DNA from: Haloquadratum walsbyi C23
GTDB taxonomy: Archaea; Halobacteriota; Halobacteria; Halobacteriales; Haloferacaceae
DNA length: 32,000 nt
Direction of reading: 5' to 3'
Assembly: GCF_000237865.1 (NCBI RefSeq)
Contig: NC_017457.1
Coordinates: 1 to 32,000 of the forward strand
This document shows, in pieces, positions 11,429 through 32,000 of this stretch. Under the pieces are notes generated by a model. That model ran no database searches. It saw nothing but the letters and a program-made list of their open reading frames with translations, and was not told where the DNA came from. Made by a program: the position numbers and the translations under genes. The first letter of the stretch is position 1. Each line of letters starts with the position of its first letter.

Positions 11429-11477
11429 ACGTGAGTAATATATGACCACTGTATTGAAACTTCGCCAGACGATTTCA

Positions 11478-11590
11478 TGAATACACTTCATGAATGTATG
11501 TGGTGAACACAACTAGTGAACATATGCAATGAATACACATCATGAACATGCTGAACAAATGTAGTGAACACAACTAATGAACAACGTAGC
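11478..11590. repeat. Array of nine TGAAYA-initiated iterons with 13-bp periodicity (candidate partition centromere or operator)
   Basis: TGAA starts at 11478, 11491, 11504, 11517, 11530, 11543, 11552, 11565 and 11578. Spacing is 13 bp except for one 9-bp unit. The unit TGAACACAACTA occurs twice (11504, 11565). The array lies about 50 bp upstream of parA. Confidence 0.7.
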
Positions 11591-12543: not shown

Positions 12544-15500
12544 ATGTCATTAAAAACCAGAATATCTGAGATGAGTGACACTGGTAAATTCGAAAATCTC
12601 GCAACTGAAGTCCTACGGAGGAGCGATCAAAAATATGAGGCTGTTATTCAGACCGGTATCAATACAGAGGGTAAGCCAATTAATGATCCTGTAGATGGGC
12701 TAGGGCAGGTTCTCGACGCGGATCCACCACATTATATATTTTTAGAATTTACTACAACTCAAAAATCAAACTTAGAGAAAAAATGGCTTGCTAATCCAGA
12801 CGCAGGAGATAATGATCCTAGGGGAGATTTGATTAAAGCTGCTGATAAATCAGATAAGATTCGTGAAAATATTCCCAATGCAGAGTTTACAGCAGTTTTA
12901 GTCTCAAACCGTGTATTAAATAGTGAACTGATGCAAGATGTTTATCATACTGTTAATCGTCGTGACATTTCTGTTGATATCTGGGACGTCCACCGTATTA
13001 GCGAATTTCTCCAGAATGATCCGGATGGACAATATATCTGTGAAGAATATTTTGATATCGATGAAAAACGGCTCTCTGAGCCGCTTCTGCTAGAACTATC
13101 AGAGGATAGTCTCAATTCATATAAACAGAGTTTTCATACCTCTGTCGGCGGTGTAAAGATAGAGCGTCCGGAACTATCAGAAATACTTTATAATGCCCGT
13201 AGCTCCGGTGTTGGAAGCCACTTCGTCCCCATAGTTGGCAATTCTGGATTCGGAAAAAGCGTTATTTCCTATCAGGCGCTGAAACGCTGGAGAGCAAATC
13301 AAAAGCCAGCACTGAGGCTTGATTCAGAAGATATTAAACATTCAAAATCTTTAGCTCAGGCAATTAAATCGGGACTTACGCGTTTAAACTCGAGTCTAGA
13401 GCATACACCAGGTCAAAAGGCACTACAACTCGCCGAGGAAAATTCACAGCTTTTGATTGTAGTCGATGATCTCAACCGTGCAAATAATCCGTCTCGTCTG
13501 CTGGCAAAACTACAAAACTGGATGGAGGGATTGAATAACACCACAGATGAATCCAAGAATGGGCATAAATCCGGTTCAGGTAGATTGCCAATTACCATTC
13601 TATGCCCATTTTGGCCCCGAATTTGGAGCAAACAAAAGCGTAAGATGACTGGAAATGAGTTCGCTGAGCCCATCGAACTTGAGGCGCTTTCCGCTGAGAA
13701 CGCAGGTGAGCTTATACAGCTACACGCAAACGAGCATGGACACGATTTTTCGGATGAGGAAGCTCGTAATCTTGCAGAGGAAGTGGGTCGAGATCCACAT
13801 TTGATCGGTTTACTCGGTCAACTTATGTGCAGTAAAGAAACTATTGATAATCTACCAGACACTTCGAAAGAGGTTCTTAGTGAGTATTCTGAATACGCTT
13901 TTGAGATGGCGAGTGAAAATTTAAATGAATCATTAATCGTTGGAGACTATGAGCGAGCTGTTGAAGAGTTGTCCCATAATATAATGAAGGCTAAAAATTT
14001 AAACCCGGAATGGAGAGATATACAAGATTGGTCATGGTCTAGCCAACGAATTTTAGATGGGATTCGAAACTTATCTGAGCAAGAGCAACTGTTTGCAATT
14101 CTGAAACAAAGAGAAGAGAGAGTCCTGTCCTTTCGTCATGACCGAATTCGTGACTTTCTGCTCGCTGACGCCGGCATCGAACAAATGGACCGAGATAGTA
14201 CCACGCATACCTACCTAAACGACCCGTATTATTACTCAATTCTTGGGACTGCAATCGCATATTTCCGACCATCTGAGACTATCCTTTCACAACTGCGGAA
14301 AAGCAACCCTCTTTCGCTCATCGAAGCGATCAGTAGGCTCAATGGAGATTTTCCAGAATATGAGCAGAAGGTAGCCGCAGAGTTTCAACGGTGGCTAGAT
14401 GACCAGGGAGGACACACAGAGATTCTTAATAGTATACTTGATGAAACAATGGATATTCTTTATCAAACAGACTCAGAACAAGTTCTTGAACTAGCTGAGT
14501 CATTACCACAGTTTCCGATAGTTCTGCTGGCAAGGTTCAGGAATGGTGACTTGAAGGCAGGAATACAATATTGTAAAAGTAACTATGGGTCACCGAATGT
14601 AAATAACTCCCGGCGAGATTCTGTATTCGACGATGTGATGCATCAAGGGGGCTATGCATATATAGACAAACTTTCCGAGATTCTCTCGTCAGTAGATGCT
14701 GAGCATGTTGAAGCAACACTTCGTCTCGCTGGTTTTGTTGCTCAAACTGAGTTAGAGCAAGGTATCAGGGAATGTTGGAAGCGTCACGGAGAAAATCCGG
14801 AGTTTCTGTCGGGATTTCTATGGGCGAGCTTCCAGTGTTGCATCCCCGAACATAGCAGCCTCGTCGATCAGGTAATCACTCGATGGAAGTCACTACCGAG
14901 TGGGAGTGATATTGGTGACGAAAACGTCGAAATCGCCACTGGTGATGTTTATAGAGAAGTAAAACACTCTCTCAGGCGGGATATATCTGAAGACCAAGTA
15001 GAATATCTGATTAAAACAGTAGAGGAATCCTCGGATATGGAACGCTATCTCGTGTCTATTCTGAGTGAGGTTCCCGACTCGAAAGCACTGGAACTCGTGG
15101 TAAAGGAGCGAGGTGAAAATATGAGGAAAACAGATGGAATATCCCCGTGGGCAACGACACTCCTAGATCCTTGGAGTCCTAGAAACCTAGGTGGTCAGGC
15201 TCTTCCTGCTAAGATAAAAAGACGAATGAAAGAGATCTGGACGGATAACAACAATGCCGACCGAACTCGAACTAGTGCGTTTCAATTGTGGGCCAAAAAT
15301 ACAGCAGAGGGTGACATCGAGGAATTGAAACGTGCGAGTGAGAATAATTTATTCGAATACCGAGCATATTATGAACGGCTGAGGTTAGCTGATAAAACGG
15401 TTATAGACTCTTCATCAGTTAATTTCGTTGAAAAATCCAGTCTAATTAATGTTTTATCGAACGCTTGGGGGGCAGAAGCCCATAGGTTGGTTGATGACCT

Positions 15501-16245
15501 TCTTAATCAATATTTCCCAGACGATCCAGAGAGTTTATCTTATGACTTAGGTAATCTTTTGTTCGATATCCCACGAGAAAGTGCAGAGAAAATCTTAGAT
15601 CGGCATTGGGAGAAGGTCAACACCAATTCTGAATTTTTCCAAGCAGCACTGTACATTGGAACATCCCAAACCAGAAAACTGGCTGAGGAAGCGTATGGAG
15701 ACAGTGATGATCCAGGAAATCTGCTGAATCATATTGGTACAAACTTTGGGTTTAAAACTACCGGGCGATCTCAGCTGATTTCGAAACGGCAGCTTGTTTC
15801 TATCGAACCGTATCTGTGTGATATCTCTGACGTAGATTTGGTGTCAATTACGAAGAAGGCTTACGAATTAGATATGGAAGATTGGGTCACTGACCACGTG
15901 TATCCACATTTGACAGATAACCAACGACAAAGGTACTTTCCTGATGATAGTGATCTTTTAGAAGAGCTAAGTGAGATTGAAACCACAGAGAACAAAGATG
16001 TTATTGGCTGGATGATGAGATTCGATGACCGTTTCATATCAAAATCCCGTATTTGGCGAGTACTGGAGGGGTGGTTACAAAATGATCCGACGGTCGATAG
16101 GTATAGAATGTCCGTTCAGATAATCAAGAACTATGGGACACGAGAGAATCTCGACATATTGAACGATGTTTTGCTTGATTCTGACATAGCACAGCAGTTG
16201 CACAAGGATGCGGAATTCAGAGTAAAGGTTCGATCCCTAGATTGA
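12544..16245 (+). CDS. Large Mrr-like nuclease + P-loop NTPase + helical-repeat protein (Avs/STAND-like architecture)
   Basis: The N-terminus FENLATEVLRR...YEAVIQTG...DPVDGLG...YIFLEFTTTQK resembles the Mrr restriction-endonuclease catalytic domain. Walker A is VGNSGFGKS (13237-13260) and Walker B is LLIVVDDL (13450-13473). About 800 aa of helical, repeat-like C-terminus follow. I used ATG 12544; TTG 12538 is the alternative. Confidence 0.8.
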   Translation: MSLKTRISEMSDTGKFENLATEVLRRSDQKYEAVIQTGINTEGKPINDPVDGLGQVLDADPPHYIFLEFTTTQKSNLEKKWLANPDAGDNDPRGDLIKAADKSDKIRENIPNAEFTAVLVSNRVLNSELMQDVYHTVNRRDISVDIWDVHRISEFLQNDPDGQYICEEYFDIDEKRLSEPLLLELSEDSLNSYKQSFHTSVGGVKIERPELSEILYNARSSGVGSHFVPIVGNSGFGKSVISYQALKRWRANQKPALRLDSEDIKHSKSLAQAIKSGLTRLNSSLEHTPGQKALQLAEENSQLLIVVDDLNRANNPSRLLAKLQNWMEGLNNTTDESKNGHKSGSGRLPITILCPFWPRIWSKQKRKMTGNEFAEPIELEALSAENAGELIQLHANEHGHDFSDEEARNLAEEVGRDPHLIGLLGQLMCSKETIDNLPDTSKEVLSEYSEYAFEMASENLNESLIVGDYERAVEELSHNIMKAKNLNPEWRDIQDWSWSSQRILDGIRNLSEQEQLFAILKQREERVLSFRHDRIRDFLLADAGIEQMDRDSTTHTYLNDPYYYSILGTAIAYFRPSETILSQLRKSNPLSLIEAISRLNGDFPEYEQKVAAEFQRWLDDQGGHTEILNSILDETMDILYQTDSEQVLELAESLPQFPIVLLARFRNGDLKAGIQYCKSNYGSPNVNNSRRDSVFDDVMHQGGYAYIDKLSEILSSVDAEHVEATLRLAGFVAQTELEQGIRECWKRHGENPEFLSGFLWASFQCCIPEHSSLVDQVITRWKSLPSGSDIGDENVEIATGDVYREVKHSLRRDISEDQVEYLIKTVEESSDMERYLVSILSEVPDSKALELVVKERGENMRKTDGISPWATTLLDPWSPRNLGGQALPAKIKRRMKEIWTDNNNADRTRTSAFQLWAKNTAEGDIEELKRASENNLFEYRAYYERLRLADKTVIDSSSVNFVEKSSLINVLSNAWGAEAHRLVDDLLNQYFPDDPESLSYDLGNLLFDIPRESAEKILDRHWEKVNTNSEFFQAALYIGTSQTRKLAEEAYGDSDDPGNLLNHIGTNFGFKTTGRSQLISKRQLVSIEPYLCDISDVDLVSITKKAYELDMEDWVTDHVYPHLTDNQRQRYFPDDSDLLEELSEIETTENKDVIGWMMRFDDRFISKSRIWRVLEGWLQNDPTVDRYRMSVQIIKNYGTRENLDILNDVLLDSDIAQQLHKDAEFRVKVRSLD

Positions 16246-16384
16246 CTTTTTTATGTTTTGACAGTGTAAATGTCATGATTACACTCGAATATCAAAAGTG
16301 CCTTGCGCACACGAGGTGCTGATGCGTTGTTCCAAGACTTTCTTAAATATCGTAATTACAGTAGCATAATAAAAGATAATTTAT

Positions 16385-16600
16385 CTCTCAAATGTCACTC
16401 AATGTTCCACATTCTTCAAACTGCGTTTCCACTTTCTCAGGATGATTGAGTCCAACCAGTACAACTGCCTTCTCATACGAGGTATCTGAACAATGTCCTT
16501 TTTACGCTCGTGAGGAGAACATCAACGACTTCGACTCTTGGATGAAATATGAGCTTGAGCGTAAGCTTAGTGAGCGAGGTTATCAGAACATCGTCGCTCG
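16385..16600 (-). pseudogene. Decayed homolog of the ParA-associated gene (10152-10556)
   Basis: The minus-strand translation GHCSDTSYEKAVVLVGLNHPEKVETQFEECGTLSDI* aligns with DVSLTDLREAIALVGLNHLNEVEAQLEEWGYGMKFEE*. Upstream, YFIQESKS aligns with LFLQEETKG. At least two in-frame stops interrupt it. Confidence 0.55.
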
Positions 16601-16903
16601 GGAGATGACAGATGCACTTCTGCGAACTGCCGTTGAGGAAGACCTTGTCCAAGAAGTTACAAAGCGGTTTGAAGAGGCTCGATCTTCTATTTCTAAATCG
16701 AGTAAATAGCTTATGACTTCAGAACAGGACAATTTATAATTATTATAATCACCAGACGCAGTCTGAGTTGGAACTCGGACATCCGTTTGACTGATTCAAG
16801 ACATATGCTGAGATTATGTATAGCGATATATGATTTATAGAACCAATTTTTGCATTCTGATACGCTGAAAGTGTCGATATTAGGACTTTGATGATTCGAA
16901 CAA

Positions 16904-16937
16904 TTTACTGTGTTTTAGAGCGAAAAGACACAGTAAA
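16904..16937. promoter_or_regulatory. Perfect 10-bp inverted repeat TTTACTGTGT-N14-ACACAGTAAA upstream of the integrase
   Basis: Read directly from the sequence. It ends 36 bp before the integrase ATG (16974). Confidence 0.45.
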
Positions 16938-16973
16938 CTAAAGTGGGTCCCCGCCGTCCACAAATTCATTATC

Positions 16974-18110
16974 ATGATACCCGGCAAATCCACGGCTCCA
17001 AATGATGAAACCAATCTGGACGTCGCAGTCGATTCACGGATTGCTAGCCTTGATTCTGGTAACTATCGGGCGAACAACCGGGTAGTTCTCAAGACATTTT
17101 CAGAGTATCTGGACGATTATCAAGATACCACAGACCTCACAGAGCTGAGCATCATCGATTGTCGACGGTACGCTCAGCATCTACGGAAGAGAGTCCGTGA
17201 CGAAGATGATAACCTCTCAGCGGCTTCAGCCCATACAAATGGTCCATATTTCACCATCGTTCGAGCATTTCTCGGATGGTGCGTCGATGACGAACGGATC
17301 GAATCGAACCCTGCTCAACCGAATCGGGTGAAGGAAGAGCTTCCAGAATACCATGGCGATCACGACCGACAGTTTTGGTCAGTCAAGACACGAGAAGCAC
17401 TACTTGAATTTGTTGAGGATCGAACTCATGCTGCTCTGGAGGAATCAGGTGATGATAATGTCGAACGTGTATTTCGAGATCGGGCTGTCGTCACAGTGCT
17501 TGCTCTGACTGGAGCTCGAGGTGCCGAACTATTCTCGGATCCACGTGATGAACACCGGAACGGTCTCAGATGGAAAGATGTCAATCTCACGCAGGGTGTC
17601 ACCACTGTGTTCGGAAAGAATCGTAAGCGACAACAAATCCCTTTGACCAGCCGAGTCGTCGGCGCTCTTGAACAGTATAAATCGGTGCTGAATCCAGCAA
17701 GTGGAGACTGGCCACTATTCCCGACAGGTCACCACGCATCACTCACAGACGCTGCCAAGGAAGGTCTTGAATCGAAGGGGTGGAATTCTGAGGAAATTAA
17801 GACAGTGCTTGAAGAGTCGTTATCGATTGAAATACTCCACGAGTACGAAATCGCACCACCAGCACTTTCAAAAAATGGGGGGCGGTCCGTAATGAAACGA
17901 CTCTGTGAGGCAGCTGACATTGATATCGACGGAGAGTATCTCAAACCTCACGGTGGTCGACGAGGGCTCGGCAGCGATCTCTATGCTCAAGATGCAGAAC
18001 TCGCACAGGAACTTCTCCGGCATGAATCAATTGAAACAACCCACGAATCATATCGAGAGCAGAACGTCATTGAGCAGCGAGAACGTCTAGAACAGGCACT
18101 TGGTAAGTAA
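16974..18110 (+). CDS. Tyrosine recombinase / integrase (XerC/D-like, phage-integrase family)
   Basis: Box I is VLALTGARGAELF. Also present are KPHGGRRGLGSDLY (H-x-x-R), LLRHESIETT (second His) and HESY (nucleophile Tyr). The N-terminal SAM-like core-binding region includes CRRYAQHLRK. Confidence 0.9.
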   Translation: MIPGKSTAPNDETNLDVAVDSRIASLDSGNYRANNRVVLKTFSEYLDDYQDTTDLTELSIIDCRRYAQHLRKRVRDEDDNLSAASAHTNGPYFTIVRAFLGWCVDDERIESNPAQPNRVKEELPEYHGDHDRQFWSVKTREALLEFVEDRTHAALEESGDDNVERVFRDRAVVTVLALTGARGAELFSDPRDEHRNGLRWKDVNLTQGVTTVFGKNRKRQQIPLTSRVVGALEQYKSVLNPASGDWPLFPTGHHASLTDAAKEGLESKGWNSEEIKTVLEESLSIEILHEYEIAPPALSKNGGRSVMKRLCEAADIDIDGEYLKPHGGRRGLGSDLYAQDAELAQELLRHESIETTHESYREQNVIEQRERLEQALGK

Positions 18111-19694: not shown

Positions 19695-21359
19695 ATGACC
19701 TCCTCCGACTCAGACAATCCGACTGATGAGGCTGATATTAAACCAGGTGCTGATCTCTCCGGTATGAACTTCACGGATACTGACCTCTCCGGTGTAGATC
19801 TGTACAATTCTGACCTCTCCGACGCTCGTCTTCTCAACGCAGATCTTTCCGGTGCTAACCTCACCAACGCTAATCTCGCTGGTGCTGACCTTTCGGCTGC
19901 GTCATTGAGCGAAGCTACACTCTCCGGCGCTAATATTTCTGACGCCAACCTCACTGGAACAGACCTCTCTAGTGCTGATCTTACAGACACTGACTTGTCC
20001 AGTGCTTACCTTCTTGACGCAGATTTGACGGGTGCCTCTCTCTCTGGTGCATGTGTGACAGATGCCCAGTTGGCAGACGCTCAGTTTGAGTACACAATTC
20101 CACATGATGAGGATGTCTCACCTCGTGATATCATCCCACAAGCTGTTCTCTCCGGCGCTGACCTCTCCACAGCTGATCTTTCCGGTGCCGACCTTTCCAA
20201 TTCTGCCCTCACACATGCTGATCTCTCCAACGCCAGTCTCCGCAATGCAAGTCTCAGGGACGCCGATCTCTCTGACACTAATCTCAGTGGAGCTAGTCTT
20301 AGAGATGTTGATTTCTCTGGTGCTGACCTCTCAGGTGTTGATTTGACACTCGCTTCAGCTATCGATGCCGACTTCTCAGGTGCCGATCTAACCAACGCTG
20401 ATCTCTCCAACGCCGACCTGTTTGACCCACGACTCACCGACGTTTCAGGCGCCGACCTCACAAACACTGATCTTCGCATGGCTAATCTCTCTAATACTAG
20501 TCTTATTCAGGCGGATCTTTCTGATTCCGACCTTTCTAGTACTGATCTTACTGACGCTGATCTCCGTGATGCCAATCTCGCAGGTGCTAATCTCACTGAC
20601 GCTGACCTCTCTAGCGGATCCAGACCTCTTACAAAAACTGATCTTTCCGGTGCCGACCTCACCGGTGCTACCCTCACGCAAGCCAATCTTACCGGTGCCT
20701 CTGTTTCTGATGCAGATATAACAGACGCTCAGTTGACAGACGCCCGATTTGAATACACAATTCCACAGGATGAAGCCATCTTGCCTCACAATATTATCCC
20801 ACAAACTATTCTATCCGGCGGTAATCTCTCTGACGCATATCTCAGGGAAGCTGACCTTGCTGACGCTCGCCTTTCAAACGCATCTCTTCAGGGCGCAGAT
20901 CTCATACGTGCTAACCTTTCCGGAGCAAATCTCTCGAGTGCCGACCTCTCCAACGCTAATCTCAACCAAGCTGACTTCTCCGGCAGTAGTCTCACGGACG
21001 CTGATTTCACACACACCGATCTCATAGATGCTGATCTCTCTGAGGCTAACCTCTCTAGGGCAAATCTCTCGAATGCTGACCTCAATCGAACAAATCTCTC
21101 AGATGTTGATCTCTCTGATGCCTCCCTGAAAAAAGCCGATTTGTCTCAAACCAACCTCTCCGGTGCGAACCTCACAGATGCTGACCTCCCTGGGACAAAT
21201 CTCTCGAATGCTGATCTCTCGGGAGCTTCCCTGAACAAAACTGATCTGTCTGACATTGATTTCACAAATACTACAGTTTGGATTTCTTCTGGCGGCAAGA
21301 AATGTATTGCATCGAAACAATTGCTAGCTGAAAAAGGGGCGATTGTTGATATGAAATAA
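19695..21359 (+). CDS. Pentapeptide-repeat protein (A[DN]LxX repeats, three blocks)
   Basis: Nearly the whole 554 aa follows a 5-residue periodicity (ADLSG, ANLTN, TDLSS and so on). It is interrupted twice by a conserved linker, DAQL(A/T)DA(Q/R)FEYTIP(H/Q)DE...IIPQ..LSG. No signal peptide is present. Confidence 0.95.
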   Translation: MTSSDSDNPTDEADIKPGADLSGMNFTDTDLSGVDLYNSDLSDARLLNADLSGANLTNANLAGADLSAASLSEATLSGANISDANLTGTDLSSADLTDTDLSSAYLLDADLTGASLSGACVTDAQLADAQFEYTIPHDEDVSPRDIIPQAVLSGADLSTADLSGADLSNSALTHADLSNASLRNASLRDADLSDTNLSGASLRDVDFSGADLSGVDLTLASAIDADFSGADLTNADLSNADLFDPRLTDVSGADLTNTDLRMANLSNTSLIQADLSDSDLSSTDLTDADLRDANLAGANLTDADLSSGSRPLTKTDLSGADLTGATLTQANLTGASVSDADITDAQLTDARFEYTIPQDEAILPHNIIPQTILSGGNLSDAYLREADLADARLSNASLQGADLIRANLSGANLSSADLSNANLNQADFSGSSLTDADFTHTDLIDADLSEANLSRANLSNADLNRTNLSDVDLSDASLKKADLSQTNLSGANLTDADLPGTNLSNADLSGASLNKTDLSDIDFTNTTVWISSGGKKCIASKQLLAEKGAIVDMK

Positions 21360-21576: not shown

Positions 21577-22149
21577 ATGGAGATAGAATATATATACCAC
21601 TCAGCATATGTTGAAGATATTCCGAGCATCAAACAAGGAGGACTGCGACCATCTAACCAGACATACCGGGATGATATTGAGACGAAACTACAGGTAGTGG
21701 CTTATAAAAATGAAATTTGCCTCCCAATAAATCGTCAAGATTGTGTCTTCTGTTATCCCTCGCTTCGACATGGAGTTAATATGGGATCATTCGCAACTAA
21801 GGATGCAGGTTCGCTTCGTTTACAACTCTTGCATGAAGGACTGGTCGTGATTGATGCAAAACCATTTCAAGAAAAACTGTACGTGGGAGATTTTGATCTC
21901 TTTTCTGATATTATTGAATTCTCAATCGTAGGATCGGACGATTATGAGAGGGCATTAATGATATACGCTGAATCCCTTACCCCAGTCGCCGAATTCAGCT
22001 CTATTCAGGAAATCGATGCCGAATTCAGTATCCCTGAGATATTAGTTGAGGGGAAGATTGGAGCCGACCAAGTTGTTGAGGTAATACTTCGCAAGGAGAT
22101 ACTGGGAAGTGGGTATTTCACATCATACTCAGCATTACCATCTGAGTAA
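21577..22149 (+). CDS. DarT-like (DUF4433-like) ADP-ribosyltransferase-fold protein
   Basis: Three segments match my recollection of DarT. IYHSAYVEDIPSIKQGGL matches IYHITHIDNL..IL..G.L, DCVFCYPS matches DYVPFYFCPRS, and PEILVEGKIGADQVVEVIL matches the catalytic QAEFLV...I..I motif. The size (190 aa) also fits. Assigned from memory, not from a search. Confidence 0.6.
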   Translation: MEIEYIYHSAYVEDIPSIKQGGLRPSNQTYRDDIETKLQVVAYKNEICLPINRQDCVFCYPSLRHGVNMGSFATKDAGSLRLQLLHEGLVVIDAKPFQEKLYVGDFDLFSDIIEFSIVGSDDYERALMIYAESLTPVAEFSSIQEIDAEFSIPEILVEGKIGADQVVEVILRKEILGSGYFTSYSALPSE

Positions 22150-22153
22150 GTCA
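22012..22153 (+). repeat. Direct repeat copy A (native 3' end of the DarT-like gene)
   Basis: It aligns with 28915-29052 at roughly four-fifths nucleotide identity by eye. Its last roughly 75 bp also align with 30818-30892. Confidence 0.8.
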
Positions 22154-22421
22154 CATACTGGATCATAATCTCGACGAATATGGCTATTGATTGCTCAGAG
22201 ATGATATTCTGGAGCGATATGAGTGTGTGGTCTAGTAATAAATCGACTCGGATTCTGACCATGTGAGTTATAAACAATGAGAAAGCCATTAGTATAGATT
22301 GACCGTGTACAGATGATCAAGTCTCTGAATCTATCTATTCCCGGTCACGCCACACAAACTGCCCTGGAACTATGTCATACCGGGAAAGGAATATACCCCT
22401 GTGCTGAGTCAATTAATAAAT

Positions 22422-24140
22422 ATGAGTGGGAGGACGCCGACTATCGATACGAAATGGAATGATCTAACAACAGTGCATGAAAAACGTCGAGAGACAATTC
22501 AAGACCAGATTAAAGATTTTGACGACCCTGGTCAACGGGTGCCAGCAACATATGTAATCGGAGCAATTGGAGCAGGAAAAACCCAGCTTATGATGCATGC
22601 CTTTCGATATGCTTGGGCGTACCAAAACAAACCAGCTCTGTACGTGACCTTGGGAAAATTGATTGACGATCTCGAAGATCAAGTCGGTATTTCCAATTCA
22701 GAGGAGCAGCTAACTTCCCAAGTGTATTTATATAATTGGATAGAGGACAGATGTAAAGACGAGTTAGATACTATTAGAGCTAAAATAGATCGAAATGAGA
22801 AATTTGATCAAAATCAGTATCTTCCAAACGCACGTTCTTCTAATCCGCAGGAGTATTTTGAGCAAATAGAGGGAAATTATGATGCTGACAGTTTCGATTA
22901 TGACGAACTGACCATTGAACATGAAGATATCTCAGACATCGCTCATAAGAAGGATTCAATCGTTCTATTGATCGACGAAATGGAGGAAAGCTATCCTCGT
23001 CTGGAGGGTCTCATTGATCAAACAACAGGACCACTGAGGGAGGTCGTCACTGGTATAGGGAATCAAGAACCACCGTTCTACTTAATTGGGGCTTTTGGAT
23101 ATGCGAGTGTACAAGAAATTGGTCATGCAGAATTTCGTCGAGTAACTCCTGTTTCCCTTCCGATTTTACACCCTGATGATCGAATTAGTGAACTGTTTGG
23201 TGAGAATTTGGAGTATCAACAAGAAAATTTCGCTTGGTGGATGTCAAGGGGTCGACCAGGGTGGATTAATATTGCTTTGCAAAGCCAAGCCAGTGCTCTA
23301 AATGGTGGAATCAATAAGACTGATGACCAGCTACGAGAGATACCAGACGCTATGTCACGTGTTAATATGATCGATCTAGAGTCCATGGACCGGAGATTAA
23401 ATAAATTTACCAACGAAATCAGAGATTTCATTAGCTATCTTCTCCTGCAACCGGGTCCCCATCATATAGGTGATTTTACTGAGACTGAGAAGGTCCGCCA
23501 ATATATGAAGTCTGAGGCTCCGCCAGTGTTGTGTGCACCCAAAACAAGTGGAGTTGATAAGATCCACTCAGCATTCCTCGCTGGTATAAAGAACACATCA
23601 ATTTACACTAGTTCTGTTTCCTCGGATATCCTTCGACGGTATGCAAGGAGAGTGTTGAGAGGAATAGCAAATTCTGCAGGGGAAATTGTGGCGGGAAACG
23701 CAAATGTTCCCACGTACCGCAAGGGTCAGAGAACACATGAATTAATACTTTCCCCACTTTGTGAACGCATGCATGATATCGCCCTAGAGGAGGTTAATGA
23801 AGAAAGTGAATCAGAAACAATAGATTTTTTATATAAATTAGCTCAGATGACCCGTTCAACTCCCACGGAGGATATATCTCAAGACTTTGCAGATATGTTT
23901 AACCAATTTACAAAATACGGACATAACAGTGTAGACCAGGAAATGTATGTTTCAATCGCACCTAAAACATTAATTACTGCTTTTCCTAGTTTTGTAACCA
24001 ATCCACAGCTGGATTTCGCTGGGTCCGCTCGTAATAGAAAAGAACAGCTCACTGGACTAGTCGATAAAGTAAATCGAATTGATGAGATCGACGAACGTCT
24101 CAAAGACTTTGGAAAAATTCTACAGGAAGATCCGAGATGA
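22422..24140 (+). CDS. P-loop ATPase, first gene of the four-gene operon
   Basis: Walker A is VIGAIGAGKTQL (about 22560-22586) and Walker B is SIVLLIDEMEE (about 22958-22990). The track ORF starts at GTG 22401. I prefer ATG 22422 because an AATATA TATA-like box lies about 30 bp upstream of it. No known family recognised beyond the P-loop. Confidence 0.85.
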   Translation: MSGRTPTIDTKWNDLTTVHEKRRETIQDQIKDFDDPGQRVPATYVIGAIGAGKTQLMMHAFRYAWAYQNKPALYVTLGKLIDDLEDQVGISNSEEQLTSQVYLYNWIEDRCKDELDTIRAKIDRNEKFDQNQYLPNARSSNPQEYFEQIEGNYDADSFDYDELTIEHEDISDIAHKKDSIVLLIDEMEESYPRLEGLIDQTTGPLREVVTGIGNQEPPFYLIGAFGYASVQEIGHAEFRRVTPVSLPILHPDDRISELFGENLEYQQENFAWWMSRGRPGWINIALQSQASALNGGINKTDDQLREIPDAMSRVNMIDLESMDRRLNKFTNEIRDFISYLLLQPGPHHIGDFTETEKVRQYMKSEAPPVLCAPKTSGVDKIHSAFLAGIKNTSIYTSSVSSDILRRYARRVLRGIANSAGEIVAGNANVPTYRKGQRTHELILSPLCERMHDIALEEVNEESESETIDFLYKLAQMTRSTPTEDISQDFADMFNQFTKYGHNSVDQEMYVSIAPKTLITAFPSFVTNPQLDFAGSARNRKEQLTGLVDKVNRIDEIDERLKDFGKILQEDPR

Positions 24141-25825
24141 AGACCAGCGTTTACCCTATCCCATGTGGTGAAGGAAGCATAGAGGAAGTAGTAGACCCTT
24201 TTTTAGAAGCAGAAATCAATCAACGGGCGTTTTCAAAAGATGATCTGTTCATGATTCTATTACTTAATCCAAGCACATCGGAGTATGAAGGAACTAATAA
24301 AAATGCTGATTATAAAGATATCGTCACAACTCATATAAAAAGTAAGGAGTCTCGGATTCGAATAGCATATGAACTTGATAAGCTGACCGTTGCGCTCTTA
24401 GATGAGCGCCGGCTCAGTAACTTCGCAATAAGTTTGCTCTACAACGTTCTCGAACAAAATCCGGTTGCTGACCCGACCAGTGTCATGACTGATGAGCAGA
24501 ATCTGACAGATGAAGATATTCGAAAAGTCGATTATTATTTGCCAAAAATAAATGATCAAGTTCAAGATCTTATTACGGAGCAACAGCAGGAGTTTGAAAA
24601 TCAAATGTCCTCGCTGTTACCAGTCTCACCGAATAATAAAATAGCTTCTAATTTATATCGTCGGCTGAGCGATAATATACAGAGCGATGGAGCTATTATC
24701 GACTATCTCATTCTTACCGCAGCAGCTGACGAAGATCGAGAGGGGGTCCAGTCTCTACTAGGGTCGATACGGAACATAGATCTTGAAAAGAAGCTACTTT
24801 CAGGAGATTATACCTCTAATATTAGTGGATACCAACGTATAATACAAAATTCATACAATAAAAAACAATCAGAGTTCTTTGATGACTTTGAGACTGGTAT
24901 AGATTTATATCGTGATAGCACTACGAGTGCCGAGCTTCTACGAATTTTGCGGGAGCTTGATTCTGATATCTCGATAAACTCCGAGCAGAACCAAAGTAGA
25001 TCAGCATACCAATATGAACCAACTTTGACACAATTACTAACAGCACAGATAGATGGAAATAATCAGATTATTAAATGGATTCTACAAGCAGTCAATATTA
25101 TTCGTCTTATTCAAGATAATGAAAGATCTGTATTAGACTCTTATCAAACTCAACATACTGAACTGGAAAGTACATTAGATGAGATTGATGAGAATTTTAA
25201 TAGGATTGATGAATTACAGGAAAATTATCCGAAGGGTAAAATCTCATATGATGATACCACAATCGATCATGCTCGAGAAATGATCCGTGAGGTGAAACAG
25301 AGTAACTCTTTATTAATCAAGTTTATATTTGGATATGATATGGATTTCCGGACGAGTGCCTACACCACTGCTCAAACTCGATTGAGAGATACAAAGTCGA
25401 GAATAGATAACGGGATAGGCAAACTCCGGAACCAAACGATAGAAATAAACAAATTGCAAACGAGCCTCGAGAATGAGTTAGATACAATTGACCAATCATA
25501 TGAGGATATCGAAAGAACATCTGTGGTAGTTGACATTCCTGAGCGAGATGATATAAAGAGGGTATTTCAGGATGAATGGTTGAGTGAAATTGAATCGCTC
25601 AAGCGAGAGCTACCAATGCTTGACTTTGGGTCACAGAGCGAAGATATACGACGGACTCAGCAAGAGGACTGGCAACAGGTGATTGCTGAGACTCGGAACG
25701 AGTTACAATCGTTGAGAGCATTCGCTGATGACCTGTCTAAATTTAGTGACCAAATTAACCAAATCGAGAATATTAGGGATAACACTAGACAAGAATTTCA
25801 GCAAATCCATGATAAAATTCAATAA
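24137..25825 (+). CDS. Large coiled-coil protein of unknown family, second gene of the operon
   Basis: The start overlaps the upstream stop (ATGA). The 562 aa are rich in E, Q, D, N and L with long heptad-like stretches, especially in the C-terminal roughly 250 aa. No enzymatic motif found. Confidence 0.85.
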   Translation: MKTSVYPIPCGEGSIEEVVDPFLEAEINQRAFSKDDLFMILLLNPSTSEYEGTNKNADYKDIVTTHIKSKESRIRIAYELDKLTVALLDERRLSNFAISLLYNVLEQNPVADPTSVMTDEQNLTDEDIRKVDYYLPKINDQVQDLITEQQQEFENQMSSLLPVSPNNKIASNLYRRLSDNIQSDGAIIDYLILTAAADEDREGVQSLLGSIRNIDLEKKLLSGDYTSNISGYQRIIQNSYNKKQSEFFDDFETGIDLYRDSTTSAELLRILRELDSDISINSEQNQSRSAYQYEPTLTQLLTAQIDGNNQIIKWILQAVNIIRLIQDNERSVLDSYQTQHTELESTLDEIDENFNRIDELQENYPKGKISYDDTTIDHAREMIREVKQSNSLLIKFIFGYDMDFRTSAYTTAQTRLRDTKSRIDNGIGKLRNQTIEINKLQTSLENELDTIDQSYEDIERTSVVVDIPERDDIKRVFQDEWLSEIESLKRELPMLDFGSQSEDIRRTQQEDWQQVIAETRNELQSLRAFADDLSKFSDQINQIENIRDNTRQEFQQIHDKIQ

Positions 25826-25828
25826 GAT

Positions 25829-28207
25829 ATGACGGACCCAATGGAGAATTTATCGGGTATTATGAATGGCATCGATGTAAAAACCAACAAAGAATATCAC
25901 AAGGAAGCTAACGAGGCTGTTACAGAGACAAAAGAAGAAATAGAGAATTGGTTTACTGATCAACTGGTATCTGAACAAAAAGAAAGTGTTCGCATAGCTT
26001 ATAATCAAGCATTAGAACAGGACATTCTGGACTTTTGTGATAAAGAACCGATGGGTCTAGGTGAATATCCAGATGAAGTTAATAATATAAACCAGCGCTT
26101 ACTGGATATTCTTCGTAATCCAGAGGCACAATCACTCGCAGACAGGGTTGATAAATGGTTCATAAATGCTGACATTGATGTGCTTGATTCTAATGAGAGA
26201 AACAGTCTAATAGAGATATTTAAATCCGATATAGATGGGTGTAAAAACGAGATTGAGCAAATTATCCAGAGTCATAACAGTCTCCAAGATATGCTTCCAA
26301 TAAAAAATAGGCAAGTGAATCAGCTGCTCCGTAATGCAATCACTGAGTCATCGTCTATTAGTGATCTCCGCTCCATTAGGGAGCAATTAGAGATGATTGT
26401 GCCATTGTGGTCTTATCCATGGACAATTGACTCGCAGTATGAGGTGGCAACAGCGATCGAAACAGAAGTCAAGTTGATTCTCGAGGAGTACATTAAAGAA
26501 GTAGTCACTAGGTCAGACAACTTCCGGCAACTTACTACAGTCATTAATGAAAAGTTTAGTGAGGGATCTAAACATTTAGATGACATACGTAAGGGGTGGT
26601 CACGGGTCGAGAGAGAAATTAGGCAACTCAACGATCTTGAAGAGATTAATTCGATACCGGTTGCAATAGAAACTCGAGCACAGAGTGCGGCTGAAAACGC
26701 AAGTAGTATCCAATCGTTAGTCAATGAAATAAATGATTTAGAGAGTGATGTCTCAATTCTATATGACATGGCATCGGTTTCACTTGACCGATTTCATCCC
26801 ACTGCTGATGTCTCCTCTAGTTCGTTTATTAATACTGCAGAGTTAATTACAGAATATGAGTCAGCGCATGAAATTCGCAAGTCATCTCTTGCGGCGGAGA
26901 CCTCTTCAAAAATAACTCACATTAAACCTGAGTTCGATAAACATGTGACAAATGCTCGGGACATAATGGAACAGACCGAGAATAGTCTTCGGAGTAAAAT
27001 TAATTCTGTGCGGAAATTAGCACAGAATTTTGACTTGCGGGATGACTCAGACAAGCTGAGTGATATATTATCAGATTTAAGTAAAACTAATAAAATCGAT
27101 GATTATATTAATATCTCTAATCGTAGTGGGAGCTTATTCAAAAAAATACAAACGAAGATTAAAACTGAACGGCTCGCTGAGCTTGAGTTGGTAGTATTTG
27201 AATGGCTTACAGATCAATCAGACAATCCACACGAGATTGTAGACAATTTAGAGGCAATCAGGACAGTGCAGTCATACCCATGGAATCTTGATTCAAATCA
27301 GACCGGGATCAAGATGATTGAGGACTGTGTGAATGATATGATAGGAGACGTCCTAAAATCGCTTCTCGAACAACTTGAATCTCCAGATGAATTGGTCACC
27401 CTTATTGATGAGAAATTTGAATCCGTGGGTAAGTCACTCTCGCAACTGGAACAAATAGGAATAGTATGCAAAGTCGAAGCCTTGAGCGATACAGAGATAG
27501 TTGAGGACCCGCTCCGTCCAGCAAATCTAAGAATACGAAATGCACTGGATAATGCAGGTTCACTTCGAAATCTGATCAAGAGACTCGAGGATGTAGCCGA
27601 AAGTATCTGTATGTTAAATGACATTGCCTCTAGATCACTCGATAAGTTCATATCTCGCACCGATGAGGTACCGGATAATCTGGAAAGCGAAGTTCTTGAT
27701 TTGCATGATCAATATCAGAAAGCTATCGATATCCGAGAGGAAGTGTTTAATCTCGATGCTCCTGAACTGCCGACAGCTCATAATGAATTTGAGAATCACA
27801 TTGACAATGCGAAGAATATATTAGAAAAATTGCAAAAAAAAACCCGACAGAAAATTCGGTTATCTGAAGAATTAGCGAGGGAGTTTGAACTAAAAGGAGA
27901 ATTGAAACAATTAGATAGGATCTCCAAAAAATTCGTGAATGTAAGCACAGTCAAGGATACTATTCGGACATACTCAAAAGTAATCGATGTTTACGACCAA
28001 ATACAAGAGATAGTTCATGACACACTTTCATCAACACAGAAAGGTATCTTAGAATGGATTATACGAAGAGATGATGACGTAGTATTGAACTCTGACGTTC
28101 AGAGGGAGTTAGCCACAGAGTTCGGCTGTGAGGAAACGGAGATCGTGGACCACTTCCTCTCTCTCCAAGAGGACGGATTTTTAGACTTCATCGTTAAAAA
28201 ACCATAG
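25829..28207 (+). CDS. Large coiled-coil protein with an internal roughly 289-aa tandem duplication and a C-terminal wHTH-like domain, third gene of the operon
   Basis: It starts 3 nt after the upstream stop. Two modules each open with SYPW(T/N)(I/L)DS (nt 26411 and 27272) and share collinear motifs. The C-terminus reads QKGILEWIIRRDDDVVLNSDVQRELATEFGCEETEIVDHFLSLQEDGFLDF, which looks like a winged helix. Confidence 0.85.
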   Translation: MTDPMENLSGIMNGIDVKTNKEYHKEANEAVTETKEEIENWFTDQLVSEQKESVRIAYNQALEQDILDFCDKEPMGLGEYPDEVNNINQRLLDILRNPEAQSLADRVDKWFINADIDVLDSNERNSLIEIFKSDIDGCKNEIEQIIQSHNSLQDMLPIKNRQVNQLLRNAITESSSISDLRSIREQLEMIVPLWSYPWTIDSQYEVATAIETEVKLILEEYIKEVVTRSDNFRQLTTVINEKFSEGSKHLDDIRKGWSRVEREIRQLNDLEEINSIPVAIETRAQSAAENASSIQSLVNEINDLESDVSILYDMASVSLDRFHPTADVSSSSFINTAELITEYESAHEIRKSSLAAETSSKITHIKPEFDKHVTNARDIMEQTENSLRSKINSVRKLAQNFDLRDDSDKLSDILSDLSKTNKIDDYINISNRSGSLFKKIQTKIKTERLAELELVVFEWLTDQSDNPHEIVDNLEAIRTVQSYPWNLDSNQTGIKMIEDCVNDMIGDVLKSLLEQLESPDELVTLIDEKFESVGKSLSQLEQIGIVCKVEALSDTEIVEDPLRPANLRIRNALDNAGSLRNLIKRLEDVAESICMLNDIASRSLDKFISRTDEVPDNLESEVLDLHDQYQKAIDIREEVFNLDAPELPTAHNEFENHIDNAKNILEKLQKKTRQKIRLSEELAREFELKGELKQLDRISKKFVNVSTVKDTIRTYSKVIDVYDQIQEIVHDTLSSTQKGILEWIIRRDDDVVLNSDVQRELATEFGCEETEIVDHFLSLQEDGFLDFIVKKP

Positions 28208-28208
28208 C

Positions 28209-28619
28209 ATGGTTGAATACAACCACGATATGCTCGTCCGAAAACTGGATGAGAAATTGAGAGACAAATTTGAGACTGCAGAATTAATCGCCCGAAAGGG
28301 TGGATCTGAATTTAAATTAGGTAGATTACGAATTGAGCGACGACATTTCTCTGGTGAGTCTGGTGCTCCCGATTTCGTTCTTTTTGCGGATTCTCTCCAG
28401 CTTCTTAATAAACAATTTGCGGGTTCAGTGCCACTGGCTCTTCTGGAAATAGAAAAAACAATTGGAGATTCTATGCATGATCTTCGCAGTTATGCAGATT
28501 CAGATCGTGAGCAGTTACCGGTGCTGCTCATCACAGAATCGGAAATGGGTGATCGTATTAAGACGATCCCGGGAAAAAGCACATTTAGAATATTGACCAA
28601 AAATTATGATGAAATATGA
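28209..28619 (+). CDS. Small PD-(D/E)xK-like protein (putative nuclease), fourth gene of the operon
   Basis: It starts 1 nt after the upstream stop. APDFVLFAD (about 28364-28385) and, about 25 residues later, LALLEIEKT (about 28441-28461) resemble a restriction-endonuclease-fold core. The E-I-E-K spacing is not the canonical ExK. Confidence 0.7.
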   Translation: MVEYNHDMLVRKLDEKLRDKFETAELIARKGGSEFKLGRLRIERRHFSGESGAPDFVLFADSLQLLNKQFAGSVPLALLEIEKTIGDSMHDLRSYADSDREQLPVLLITESEMGDRIKTIPGKSTFRILTKNYDEI

Positions 28620-28803: not shown

Positions 28804-29052
28804 CAGATAAAAAAGATCAATATCGATACCGAAGGAGAGCACATTGCCATTGATGATGATACAGGAGATGAGTCGATCAATCTTGACGCTGACAGCAAAG
28901 AGAGGCTCATTACAATCGATGCTGAATGCCGAAGCCCTGAGATATTACTCGAGGGAAAGATTGGAGCCGACCAGATTGTTGAGGTAACATTCCGTAAGGA
29001 GATACTCGGAAGTGGGTACTTTGCATCATACCCGGCACTGCCTTCTGAATAA
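28804..29052 (+). pseudogene. Start-less gene fragment carrying direct-repeat copy B (3' end homologous to the DarT-like gene)
   Basis: My own translation ends ...RLITIDAECRSPEILLEGKIGADQIVEVTFRKEILGSGYFASYPALPSE*. This frame has no ATG, GTG or TTG after the stop at 28801. A short ATG ORF (28772) in another frame abuts it. Confidence 0.6.
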
Positions 29053-29122
29053 ATCATCACTTGGAGGGGTCCGTAAAGTCAGAAGGATAGAATACCCCAC
29101 CCCCCGTGTGCGATATGAAATT
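28915..29122 (+). repeat. Direct repeat copy B (coding part plus about 70 bp of shared downstream sequence)
   Basis: 28915-29052 aligns with copy A. 28975-29122 aligns with copy C, including the post-stop stretch TCATCACTTGGAG.GGTCCG...CCCACCCCCCGTGTGCGATATGAAATT. Confidence 0.8.
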
Positions 29123-30508: not shown

Positions 30509-30817
30509 ATACTATAGTTATGTATCTGACACACGTATGAATGTACCGATGTGCAGAATAACCCAGAATTACATCAGCATCTTGGTTTCTAAGAGATTAA
30601 AATCATACATAAATATAGTATTATCCAATATAATATGTCGTTCGACAATTAGTAGAGCATAGTATGCTCTGCTATCTGAGTAGGCATCAGATGAATCATG
30701 TGTGTCTTTGCTCTCTGCGTGAGACGGGGTAAAAAAACCACGACCCGACTCCAAGCGTTGCCAACTCAGAGAGAAACGGTGGAATCTTTAGATATACTGC
30801 ATCGTAACTGTCATACT

Positions 30818-30962
30818 GTTGAGGTAATACTCCGTAAGGAGATACTCGGGAGTGGATACTTTGCATCATACCCGGCACTACCTTCTGAGTAAGTCATCAC
30901 TTGGAGAGGTCCGCAGAGTCAAAAGTATAGGATATCCCACCCCCCGTGTGCGATATGAAATT
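30818..30962 (+). repeat. Direct repeat copy C (last roughly 24 codons of the DarT-like gene plus about 70 bp downstream)
   Basis: It encodes ...VEVILRKEILGSGYFASYPALPSE* and is followed by the same downstream stretch as copy B. The upstream part of track ORF 30698-30892 has no homology to the 190-aa gene. Confidence 0.75.
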
Positions 30963-30987: not shown

Positions 30988-32000
30988 TCAACTTCCCTCA
31001 AAAAAATTGTTTATTTGCGCATTGACCACAGATTTGATAAGATCTCCTTCGTGTTTAGCATCCTCAAGTCGAAAGTCAGTTTCGAGAGTCTCAACCACCA
31101 CTTCTGAGTCGTCAATAAACGTGTATTCCTTATGTACACCACTACCGAAACCACGTCCCCGTTTTTGTGACGTGACAAGATTATACGTCTCAGCCTCGTT
31201 CATGTATCTCAGATAAGATTCACGTGATTTTTCCTCAACATCTAAAATATCGACGAGAAACTGATACACTCGATAAGCAACTGTACTGGGAATAGCGTCC
31301 AAATTGCGCTGTGAGTAGACAGAAGAAACAGCAGTAGCGTAGAGTGAAAGCTTCTTTTGGGTCGATAGTCCCTGCATTTGGGTCAGTGTTCGATCCCGTC
31401 GAGCTTCTTTCTGGGCATGACGAACATGATTCTCATGAACCATATCCTCTGTTTCACGGTCGGCGATTTCTCCTGCCTTCCGGAATAAATCGATTGCTTT
31501 TCGGGCGTCACCATGATCCTGAGCGGCGAGAGCAGCGCTTAACGGGATGATTCCACCGTTAAGCACATCATCTTGGTATGCATCTTTACGACGTTTAAGA
31601 ATCGCTTGTAATTGATCTGCGTCGTAGTCGGAGAAGATGACGTCCTGTGGATTGAAAGAACTCTCCGCTCGTCCGTCAAGATTCTGCATGAATCGTGGAT
31701 CATTCGTAATTGCAGCGACGGATACGTGTCCTCCAATCCGACCAAGGTGTGATGCTCGAGATAATTGATAAAGCAGCTTCGAGTATGCCGGTTCATCATC
31801 TGGATTACGTCGTCGACCCAGCAAGAGGTCAATCTCGTCAAGAATGATGATGATTGAATCAAGGTTGTTGCTCAAGATCTCATAAAATCGATTTAGCTTC
31901 TGGTCAGTCGAGACACCACTCTCAGGGACACCAATATCGACACCAGCCTTCTGGGCAGCATTCTCTACGAGTCGGTAGATAGCCCGGTCATGAGAGCTGA
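30988..32000 (-). CDS. orc1: Orc1/Cdc6 replication initiator, 5'-partial (continues beyond the window)
   Basis: Walker B is IIIILDEIDLL, sensor-1 is AITND, and GDARKAIDLFRKAG is the sensor-2/lid helix. The C-terminus is a winged helix. The frame stays open upstream of the track's TTG (31875) to the window edge and reads ...SHDRAIYRLVENAAQKAGVDIGVPESGVSTDQKLNRFYEIL, which is typical of Orc1/Cdc6. Confidence 0.9.
   Translation of the reverse strand, partial: SSHDRAIYRLVENAAQKAGVDIGVPESGVSTDQKLNRFYEILSNNLDSIIIILDEIDLLLGRRRNPDDEPAYSKLLYQLSRASHLGRIGGHVSVAAITNDPRFMQNLDGRAESSFNPQDVIFSDYDADQLQAILKRRKDAYQDDVLNGGIIPLSAALAAQDHGDARKAIDLFRKAGEIADRETEDMVHENHVRHAQKEARRDRTLTQMQGLSTQKKLSLYATAVSSVYSQRNLDAIPSTVAYRVYQFLVDILDVEEKSRESYLRYMNEAETYNLVTSQKRGRGFGSGVHKEYTFIDDSEVVVETLETDFRLEDAKHEGDLIKSVVNAQINNFFEGS

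Follow-up and report, generated by a model that had tools for sequence, protein, structure and literature searches.

Several described defence systems resemble, in part of their architecture, the locus treated here. DISARM class 2 (DrmE, DrmA, DrmB, DrmC and the C5 methylase DrmMII) is a multi-gene defence-island set around DNA enzymes and methylases. BREX includes BrxC/PglY, a large AAA+ protein that extends into a long C-terminal region and works beside a methylase. McrBC combines an AAA+ motor with a PD-(D/E)xK subunit, while STAND proteins of the Avs type carry their effector as an N-terminal domain. Lamassu and Wadjet are multi-gene systems with an ABC/SMC head, helical or coiled-coil content and a nuclease. 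In haloarchaea, the four-gene antiviral cassette PbeABCD protects against virus SNJ1 (PMC6459918); it combines an SF2 helicase-HKD nuclease and a CxC ABC ATPase with a 66-aa protein and a DndE-like protein (PMC10853773). Here, a four-gene operon (g1–g4) was analysed at positions 22401–28619 of a 32,000-nucleotide stretch, referred to as the window, of plasmid PL100 of Haloquadratum walsbyi C23 (NC_017457.1, positions 1 to 32,000). With modest confidence, we read this operon as an undescribed, mainly archaeal module, most likely directed against viruses or plasmids.

The window was assigned to PL100, and the g1 product was 100% identical to Hqrw_5021. The PL100 replicon has 100,258 bp and a G+C content of 43.9%, is unstable in culture and dispensable, and carries mostly hypothetical genes (PMC3119063). 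An initial annotation, made from the sequence alone, had described four tightly packed genes on the same strand, and the list of open reading frames (ORFs) reproduced their positions and spacing exactly. Gene g1 (Hqrw_5021; 22401–24140, + strand) is a GTG-start ORF of 579 aa, g2 (24137–25825, +) encodes a helical partner protein of 562 aa, g3 (25829–28207, +) a helical protein of 792 aa and g4 (28209–28619, +) a candidate effector nuclease of 136 aa. The first two genes overlap by 4 nt, and gaps of 3 nt and 1 nt separate g2 from g3 and g3 from g4; the four genes are one operon. Since the homologs of g1 align starting from residue M8, its true start is probably the ATG at 22422, which gives a protein of 572 aa. 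The sequence AATATA (22390–22395, +), 27–32 nt 5' of this ATG, is a possible archaeal TATA box by the position rule for haloarchaeal promoters, and would in that case imply a leaderless g1 mRNA.

The dN/dS values against the closest relative, a Halobacteriaceae metagenome-assembled genome (MAG; locus L007), were 0.14 for g1, 0.19 for g2, 0.22 for g3 and 0.16 for g4, which indicates that all four are real genes under purifying selection. Stop codons make up an estimated 6% or so of random codons at approximately 40% G+C, so open frames of 562–792 codons are not expected by chance. The operon had also been described as more AT-rich than its flanks; its G+C content was 39.8%, against 43.6% in the remaining window, a modest difference. 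A megablast search of the operon against PLSDB gave no match, PL100 being absent from that collection.

Searches of g1–g4 against Pfam, PADLOC 2.0, NCBIfam and PHROGs yielded no significant match, the best being that of g1 to nSTAND_NTPase5. Sequence profiles of the four proteins compared with the PDB gave only noise or coiled-coil artefacts, and family scans of every member of the g3 and g4 alignments added no family. No profile library thus identified g1–g4 as a known system or as structural genes, in agreement with the initial annotation, in which the set could not be matched to any named defence system. Literature searches on haloarchaeal DISARM, PL100, new archaeal defence systems and archaeal DrmE turned up no description of the module.

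Like class 2 DISARM, the set and its relatives are multi-gene and lie in defence islands around DNA enzymes and methylases. In contrast to DISARM, g1–g4 had no detectable homology to Drm proteins, and the window carries its own g4. PADLOC models for the DEAD-type helicase DrmA (with a DUF1998 partner), DrmB and the PLD nuclease DrmC matched neither g1–g4 nor a 190-aa ORF upstream (21577–22149), and the other window ORFs of at least 100 aa had no helicase, PLD or methylase domain in Pfam. DrmE and DrmMII were likewise not found in the window (PADLOC for g1–g4 and the 190-aa ORF, Pfam for the rest).

The likeness to BREX lies in fused g1-g2 relatives of about 1,000–1,250 aa, which are often adjacent to a methylase, as well as in a weak Foldseek match of g1 to BrxC (9zll_B, E 9e-4), for which the TM-score was only 0.24–0.26. 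The BrxC profile was matched by neither g1 (E up to 1) nor eight fused relatives (E up to 0.01). PglZ and PglX were absent from the operon, from the scanned window ORFs of at least 100 aa and from every related locus examined; unlike in BREX, there is no PglZ, PglX, BrxA, BrxB or BrxL. With McrBC the operon would share the pairing of an AAA+ motor with a PD-(D/E)xK subunit. McrC was among the top structure matches of g4, and at one distant locus (L012) the core precedes an AAA_5 ATPase together with a protein of 561 aa. However, g1 does not belong to the AAA_5/McrB family, the match of g4 to McrC was non-significant (E 0.26–0.63), and nothing in McrBC corresponds to g2 or g3.

Lamassu and Wadjet resemble the operon in being multi-gene with helical content and a nuclease, and PADLOC gave a chance-level match between g3 and LmuB (E 0.035). 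They differ in the ABC/SMC head, split by a long antiparallel coiled coil, as opposed to the AAA+ fold of g1, and g2 and g3 lack long uninterrupted heptad arms; no Jet or Lmu model (JetC and LmuB included), nor that of MksB, had a significant match among g1–g4 in PADLOC. Identity with PbeABCD, which is also a four-gene haloarchaeal cassette, was rejected: none of its parts corresponds to g1–g4, and PADLOC gave no PbeA–D match. The nearest described systems are class 2 DISARM, through physical association only, BrxC, through its layout and a weak fold match, STAND/Avs proteins, through domain order, and McrBC, through its AAA+ and PD-(D/E)xK subunits; for each of them a defining feature was absent. 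The module is regarded as a defence-island pairing of NTPase and nuclease built from unnamed protein families.

The g1 ATPase motifs GAGKT and LLIDEMEE had been recognised previously, and their core residues were invariant in 31 homologs. In Walker A (G54-A-I-G-A-G-K60-T61; 22560–22583, +) these were G54, I56, G57, G59 and K60. In Walker B (L189-LIDEMEE-E196; 22965–22988, +), which lies at the end of strand 187–192 in the structure model, they were D192, E193, M194 and E195. Two further arginines, R246-R247 (23136–23141, +), were both invariant in the same homologs and stand directly before strand β5 (residues 248–252 in the model). By analogy with the SRC box of RFC, they would stand where AAA+ proteins of the RFC and ORC type have their arginine finger. 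The stretch S-R-G-R-P-G-W from S282 to W288 (23244–23264, +) was also invariant; in the model it falls at the start of lid helix 286–300, and may represent a sensor-2 or a STAND-type GxP-like motif.

The AlphaFold2 (AF2) model of g1 (pLDDT 81, pTM 0.75) consisted of an ATPase core, a helical lid, a winged-helix-like α/β domain and a helical domain. Foldseek matches comprised RFC subunits, ORC/Cdc6, ClpC, FtsH, RuvB, the N-terminus of BrxC (9zll_B) and NOD2, with E-values from 4e-4 to 5e-3 and TM-scores of at most 0.43; Foldseek probabilities of at least 0.95 were reached by RFC, ORC/Cdc6, FtsH, ClpC, RuvB and Vps4. Invariant Walker A and B motifs, the modelled core and lid and the AAA+ matches are features of the AAA+ superfamily, and we place g1 among the AAA+ proteins, in the neighbourhood of initiators, clamp loaders or STAND proteins. 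Tests for membership in any named family were negative. No STAND profile (NB-ARC, NACHT or nSTAND) scored above its gathering threshold: nSTAND_NTPase5 matched g1 with E 1.5e-4 and 22 bits against a cut-off of 34, and the relatives of g1 reached 20.7 against 27.2 for nSTAND3 and 29.9 against 33.2 for ATPase_2.

The affinity of g1 to STAND proteins bears on one alternative, in which the operon would be a split, Avs-like abortive-infection sensor. Here g1 would be the STAND NTPase, a viral protein would be bound by g2 and g3 as separate helical sensor arms, and oligomerisation would lead g4 to cut all DNA of the cell. The modelled order of NTPase, helical, winged-helix-like and helical domains would fit the STAND type, the lid contains the invariant G284-R-P286 of a GxP-like motif, and the fused relatives resemble an NTPase followed by a long helical C-terminal region. 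Weak nSTAND_NTPase5, nSTAND3 and ATPase_2 matches and the presence of NOD2 in the Foldseek list point the same way, as do a nuclease as the likely effector and the occurrence of the module alone, without a methylase, on two plasmids (PL100 in the window, and L034). Yet every STAND match remained below its curated cut-off, and the paired arginines R246-R247 would point to a classical AAA+ protein, being typical of ring- or spiral-forming members with an arginine finger and not of STAND proteins. The helical parts are separate proteins here, the effector is encoded by its own gene and not as an N-terminal domain, and g3 ends in a probable DNA-binding winged helix. The DrmABC and SNF2 partners found in related loci are DNA translocases, which are more typical of DNA-targeting, restriction-like systems. 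On balance, a split STAND sensor appears quite unlikely.

The small protein g4 had been described as a nuclease-like protein with a PD...E-x-E-K core. Its AF2 model (pLDDT 81) had the topology α-β-β-β-β-α-β-β-β, compatible with the αβββαβ core of PD-(D/E)xK nucleases, and the top matches among PDB structures were AgeI, McrC, Card1 and Bse634I, all PD-(D/E)xK nucleases, at non-significant E-values of 0.26–1. In BFVD, a Holliday junction (Hjc-type) resolvase of Halogranum tailed virus 1 was matched (E 0.019, probability 0.90), with VRR-NUC proteins lower in the list. Among 17 g4 homologs, G-x-P54-D55, E80 and D91 were invariant and E82 was nearly so. K83 was variable, so the motif is PD…ExE rather than ExEK. 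The position of the catalytic lysine of PD-(D/E)xK enzymes is occupied by E82; an ExE variant is known from BamHI, and the g4 site may therefore still be active, though non-canonical. The candidate catalytic residues, chosen by conservation, are D55 (28371–28373), E80 (28446–28448) and E82 (28452–28454), spanning 28371–28454 (+). Judged by model and motif, g4 is likely a nuclease that has the restriction-endonuclease fold and an ExE site.

The description of g2 and g3 as giant coiled-coil proteins was overstated. Both are acidic (19–20% D+E, about 5% P+G), with a heptad signal in only a few segments, not above that of the globular g1, and with runs free of proline and glycine of at most 66 aa. 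By sequence, they appear helical with short coiled segments and without SMC-like arms. An alignment of 14 g2 sequences contained 32 invariant residues, many of them in the conserved N-terminal half, while the C-terminal part was coiled-coil-like; a weak NCBIfam match to an archaeal SMC-related protein (E 1.2e-3) was far below the cut-off. Outside the clade of the window and L007, g3 has about 505–520 aa. These two share an insertion of about 290 aa, which derives from an internal duplication: BLASTP of the two halves aligned residues 183–466 (26375–27226, +) with residues 470–750 (27236–28078, +), with 25% identity over 285 aa and an E-value of 2e-24.

A winged helix-turn-helix (HTH) had been suggested for the C-terminus of g3 (28031–28207, +). 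A profile of 14 g3 C-termini gave weak but repeated matches (E 1e-3 to 0.4) to the HTH/wing (recognition-helix) regions of MarR, NirD/Lrp, SlyA, GntR, LrpA, CRP, Lrs14 and ArsR, although no Pfam HTH model matched. To judge from these profile matches, g3 probably ends in a winged helix. Descent of g2 and g3 from a common gene was unsupported (hhalign probability 26%). An origin as phage structural genes was rejected as well, the matches of g2 and g3 to tape-measure PHROGs and, in PDB profile searches, to influenza HA2, GCN4 and sigma-1 being artefacts of coiled-coil composition. The sole match to phage structural families was a biased one of g3 to phrog_167 (E 1.6e-5).

A word-index search recovered 30 homologs of g1, all from haloarchaea or hypersaline metagenomes and none of them named. 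For the related loci (given here as L numbers), genomic contexts were fetched and genes were verified with hidden Markov models (HMMs) built for this analysis. The complete g1–g4 quartet was recovered from no fewer than seven lineages of haloarchaea and from three others that are non-halophilic (archaeal or metagenomic), and is thus conserved far beyond PL100, as the proposal of a four-gene system implied. The haloarchaeal quartet loci were the window, L007, L003/L004/L016, L019, L026, L031 on the chromosome of Halalkaliarchaeum desulfuricum and L034 on a Natrialbaceae plasmid, where RefSeq labels all four genes hypothetical. Beyond the haloarchaea, L032 had a split quartet of 691/583/517/142 aa, L009 and L033 encoded a fused g1-g2 protein followed by a g3-sized protein and g4, and L008/L028 (a Desulfurococcales MAG) had a g1-g2 fusion of 1,340 aa with g4 divergently upstream. 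The g4 HMM matched the proteins of L032 (4.5e-23) and L033 (4.7e-16), while those of L009 and L008 are rows of its alignment.

An exhaustive search of 1.84 billion cluster representatives with the g1 profile yielded 229 clusters. Among the 147 non-haloarchaeal representatives listed, 119 (about 80%) had at least 750 aa (range 750–1,700 aa) and 78 had 1,000–1,250 aa; in the majority of distant relatives, g1 and g2 were combined in one protein of about 1,080 aa. The g2 HMM matched the C-terminal halves of L009_1067, L008_1340 and at least 15 further cluster representatives, with E-values from 1e-6 to 1e-11. Thus, g1 and g2 are usually one protein, which is a strong argument that they act together on PL100. 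The contrast drawn earlier with systems whose ATPase itself carries the coiled coil applies to the split haloarchaeal form, but not to the roughly 80% of non-haloarchaeal relatives that are g1-g2 fusions. One relative of 1,701 aa was observed in L012 (3096–8201); its g1 part covers residues 19–556, and neither the g2 nor the g3 HMM matched the approximately 1,150 residues beyond it, so that this protein may have a different C-terminal region or be a triple fusion. A scan of GTDB species representatives with the g1 profile returned one locus, in a Desulfurococcales MAG, the back-translated patterns being too narrow. In IMG/VR and 50,697 phage records there was no relative of g1; the module is not viral.

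Eight distinct haloarchaeal class 2 DISARM loci (L001, L002, L005, L017, L018, L022, L024 and L027) contained the g1–g3 trio without g4. The trio lay in the interval from DrmE to DrmC or immediately followed DrmC, and the g1 proteins of these loci were 38–42% identical to that of the window. PADLOC identified DrmA (1e-163), DrmB (6e-46) and DrmC (2e-15) among the neighbours in L001, and the DISARM loci also had DrmMII-type C5 methylases and a weak DrmE match. When a neighbour-joining g1 tree was rooted on the non-halophile quartet, the eight DISARM-linked loci formed one clade, nested among quartet-bearing lineages and sister to the window and L007. From this single nested clade, we infer a single loss of g4, at the entry of the trio into a DISARM locus. 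This DISARM-embedded sister clade without g4 is the strongest clue, and one invisible from the window alone.

Other partners occupied the position after the core elsewhere. In L015 the core was followed by an SNF2 helicase, and the surrounding island also encoded methylases and TIR-LRR, HEPN and PLD proteins; in L012 by an AAA_5 (McrB-type) ATPase and the 561-aa protein; and in L014 by proteins of 437 and 221 aa. Beyond g4, L009 had an N6/N4 methylase and a UvrD-PDDEXK helicase-nuclease. The expected linkage to defence genes was thus observed in other genomes, in the form of DISARM, Hachiman-like genes, methylases, helicase-nucleases and TIR/HEPN proteins. On the L034 plasmid, a DUF1837 protein and a DEAD/DEAH helicase formed a Hachiman-like pair (25034–28527, −), and two GIY-YIG nucleases and a Doc toxin lay within 10 kb of the quartet. 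In L003, paralogous proteins of 650–685 aa (7903–9855, −, and 15521–17578, −; 28% identical) flanked the quartet on both sides, and L019 carried a copy 66% identical to the 685-aa paralog (432–2459, −); none of these had a Pfam or PADLOC match. Two unrelated lineages (L008, 9410–10288; L009, 12438–13547) had a gene for a ClpP-like, SDH-type serine protease at a distance of a few kb.

A methylase within about 5 kb was found in six non-DISARM lineages (L003, L031, L009, L014, L015 and L033). In L002 (Natranaeroarchaeum aerophilus; 15043–17548) and L031 (10456–12973), a common cassette of a C5 DNA methylase, a small HTH protein and an HhH-GPD glycosylase was observed. The glycosylase probably partners the methylase in T:G mismatch repair. 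The cassette genes were 85/81/65% identical between the two loci, the adjoining modules 35/31/21%. No methylase was present in the 32-kb window (Pfam scan of the ORFs and tblastn with the methylases of related loci), nor within 10–14 kb of the module in L034, L032 and L008.

These neighbours raise the possibility of a restriction-like, methylation-dependent system as in BREX and DISARM, in which g1-g2 would be the counterpart of BrxC, DNA without the cognate mark would be attacked, and the methylase serving PL100 would be encoded elsewhere on the plasmid or on the chromosome. It would account for the methylases adjacent to or near the module in the six non-DISARM lineages and in all DISARM-embedded loci, and for a nearly identical cassette beside two very divergent modules. 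Fused relatives with the size and layout of BrxC and the Foldseek match to 9zll_B also speak for it, and methylases are reported elsewhere on PL100 (PMC3119063). We nevertheless consider such a system unlikely. Methylases were missing near the module in the window, L034, L032 and L008, and PADLOC gave no BrxC, PglX or PglZ match for g1–g4, the 190-aa ORF and the fused relatives; the other window ORFs, scanned with Pfam only, had no methylase or PglZ domain. The TM-score to BrxC was low, and several of the methylases adjoin ORFs of unknown function that could be type II restriction partners, so the association could be an island effect.

A non-immune role would have the module serve plasmid or chromosome maintenance, DNA repair or DNA organisation, for example as an ORC- or RFC-like loader with helical scaffolds that travels with mobile DNA. 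The g1 fold resembles clamp loaders and replication initiators, g2 has the weak match to an archaeal SMC-related protein, and the window also contains genes for ParA (10553–11512) and Cdc6/Orc1 (30988–31875, −), on a plasmid that is itself dispensable and unstable. Against this, the module is rare, patchily distributed and found in several different neighbourhoods, it occurs on chromosomes and plasmids alike, and other loci showed no linkage to replication or partition genes. Furthermore, the partner in the effector position varies (nuclease-like protein, helicases, ATPase), and eight loci have the trio embedded among DISARM genes. This embedding and the patchiness in particular make a housekeeping or plasmid-maintenance role very unlikely.

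The reading that we prefer, of an anti-virus or anti-plasmid module, is based on the tight operon, the purifying selection and the conservation of the set in many loci. Frequent fusion of g1 with g2, the AAA+ fold of g1, the fold and motif of g4 and the hint of a winged helix in g3 add to it, as does the neighbourhood: the trio inside eight DISARM loci, SNF2, AAA_5, methylase, Hachiman-like, GIY-YIG, Doc, TIR-LRR, HEPN and PLD genes close by, and a non-viral nature. In the proposed mechanism, the AAA+ protein g1 (ORC/RFC/STAND type) would form an ATP-driven DNA-binding complex with the helical g2 and g3, in which g1 would contact DNA through its winged-helix-like domain and g3 through its C-terminal winged helix. 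Recognition of foreign DNA by the complex would activate or recruit a nuclease, which on PL100 would be the small protein g4, with its PD…ExE motif and probable restriction-endonuclease fold. Elsewhere, this core may be wired to DISARM DrmABC, an SNF2 helicase or a McrB-like ATPase pair, and an adjacent DNA methylase, where present, probably marks self DNA. Complex formation, DNA sensing, nuclease activity and a defence phenotype are all deduced from these comparisons.

Several points weigh against a defence role of this kind. None of g1–g4 had significant homology to a validated defence protein in PADLOC, and the same was true of the fused relatives. With 229 clusters among the 1.84 billion representatives searched, the family is rare, and the sample of contexts is small and partly redundant. 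Co-location in defence islands can by itself be misleading, and the complex and the DNA-binding role of g2 and g3 are conjecture. The nuclease matches of g4 were non-significant (best E 0.26 in the PDB and, for a named BFVD protein, 0.019) and the canonical lysine is missing. Finally, the absence of a nearby methylase in the window, L034, L032 and L008 leaves self-DNA discrimination unexplained. A more far-reaching version, which we put forward only tentatively, is that g1–g3 constitute a new archaeal immune front end, an AAA+/helical scaffold that would sense invading DNA and be combined with interchangeable effectors (the PD…ExE nuclease, DISARM DrmABC, an SNF2 helicase or a McrBC-like pair).

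The operon had been described as bracketed by direct repeats. Sequence comparison located a repeat in the 3' end of the 190-aa ORF 21577–22149 (22011–22153, +) and a downstream copy (28914–29056, +) 83% identical over 143 nt, so that repeats do bracket the operon, as diverged copies of a gene tail rather than as clean att sites. Att sites were rejected on account of this divergence, the presence of a third copy and the lack of an integrase between the repeats. The third copy (30754–30896; 60% identity) lies 1.84 kb beyond the second, and copies 2 (28914–29122) and 3 (30754–30962) have a further common stretch with 89% identity. Three copies of a gene tail in a row suggest serial insertions at one site. 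No family match was obtained for the 190-aa ORF itself in Pfam, PADLOC, NCBIfam or PHROG, and its previous label as ART-like could not be verified.

The remaining context described earlier, with STAND-like, integrase and plasmid (ParA, Cdc6) genes, was confirmed. A Pfam scan of the window ORFs placed the integrase at 16974–18110 and also detected ParA. The STAND-like ORF (12538–16245, +; 1,235 aa) matched nSTAND1 (9.5e-5) and NB-ARC (1e-3), both below cut-off, and is possibly a second, unrelated defence NTPase on PL100. The Cdc6/Orc1 ORF was 295 aa as called, and the AAA profile matched only from position 58, which indicates that the Walker A part is missing from the reading frame; Hqrw_5030 is listed as a cdc6 homologue beside a putative origin on PL100 (PMC3119063). 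A pentapeptide-repeat protein of 554 aa (19695–21359, +; Pfam E 1.6e-122) is encoded by a gene whose G+C content (0.50) is the highest in the window and whose GC skew is strongly negative, and 15-nt periodic repeats inside this gene dominated the repeat-finder output.

Candidate defence systems are now being added often enough that a further one is of limited surprise. Distinctive features of the module, which is absent from Pfam, NCBIfam and PADLOC 2.0, are its apparently mostly archaeal distribution, the occurrence of its first two components in fused or split form, and the replacement of g4 by a DISARM locus in one clade. At only 6.2 kb, the operon is a concrete candidate fit for trial in tractable haloarchaea. 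The exchange of g4 for a whole DISARM locus in the sister clade suggests that sensing and effector parts are modular in such systems, and the trio in DISARM loci could show how archaeal DISARM is controlled. If g1–g3 are indeed an immune front end, they would be the missing licensing component of DISARM in haloarchaea, and would represent a defence family of archaeal origin without a described bacterial counterpart.

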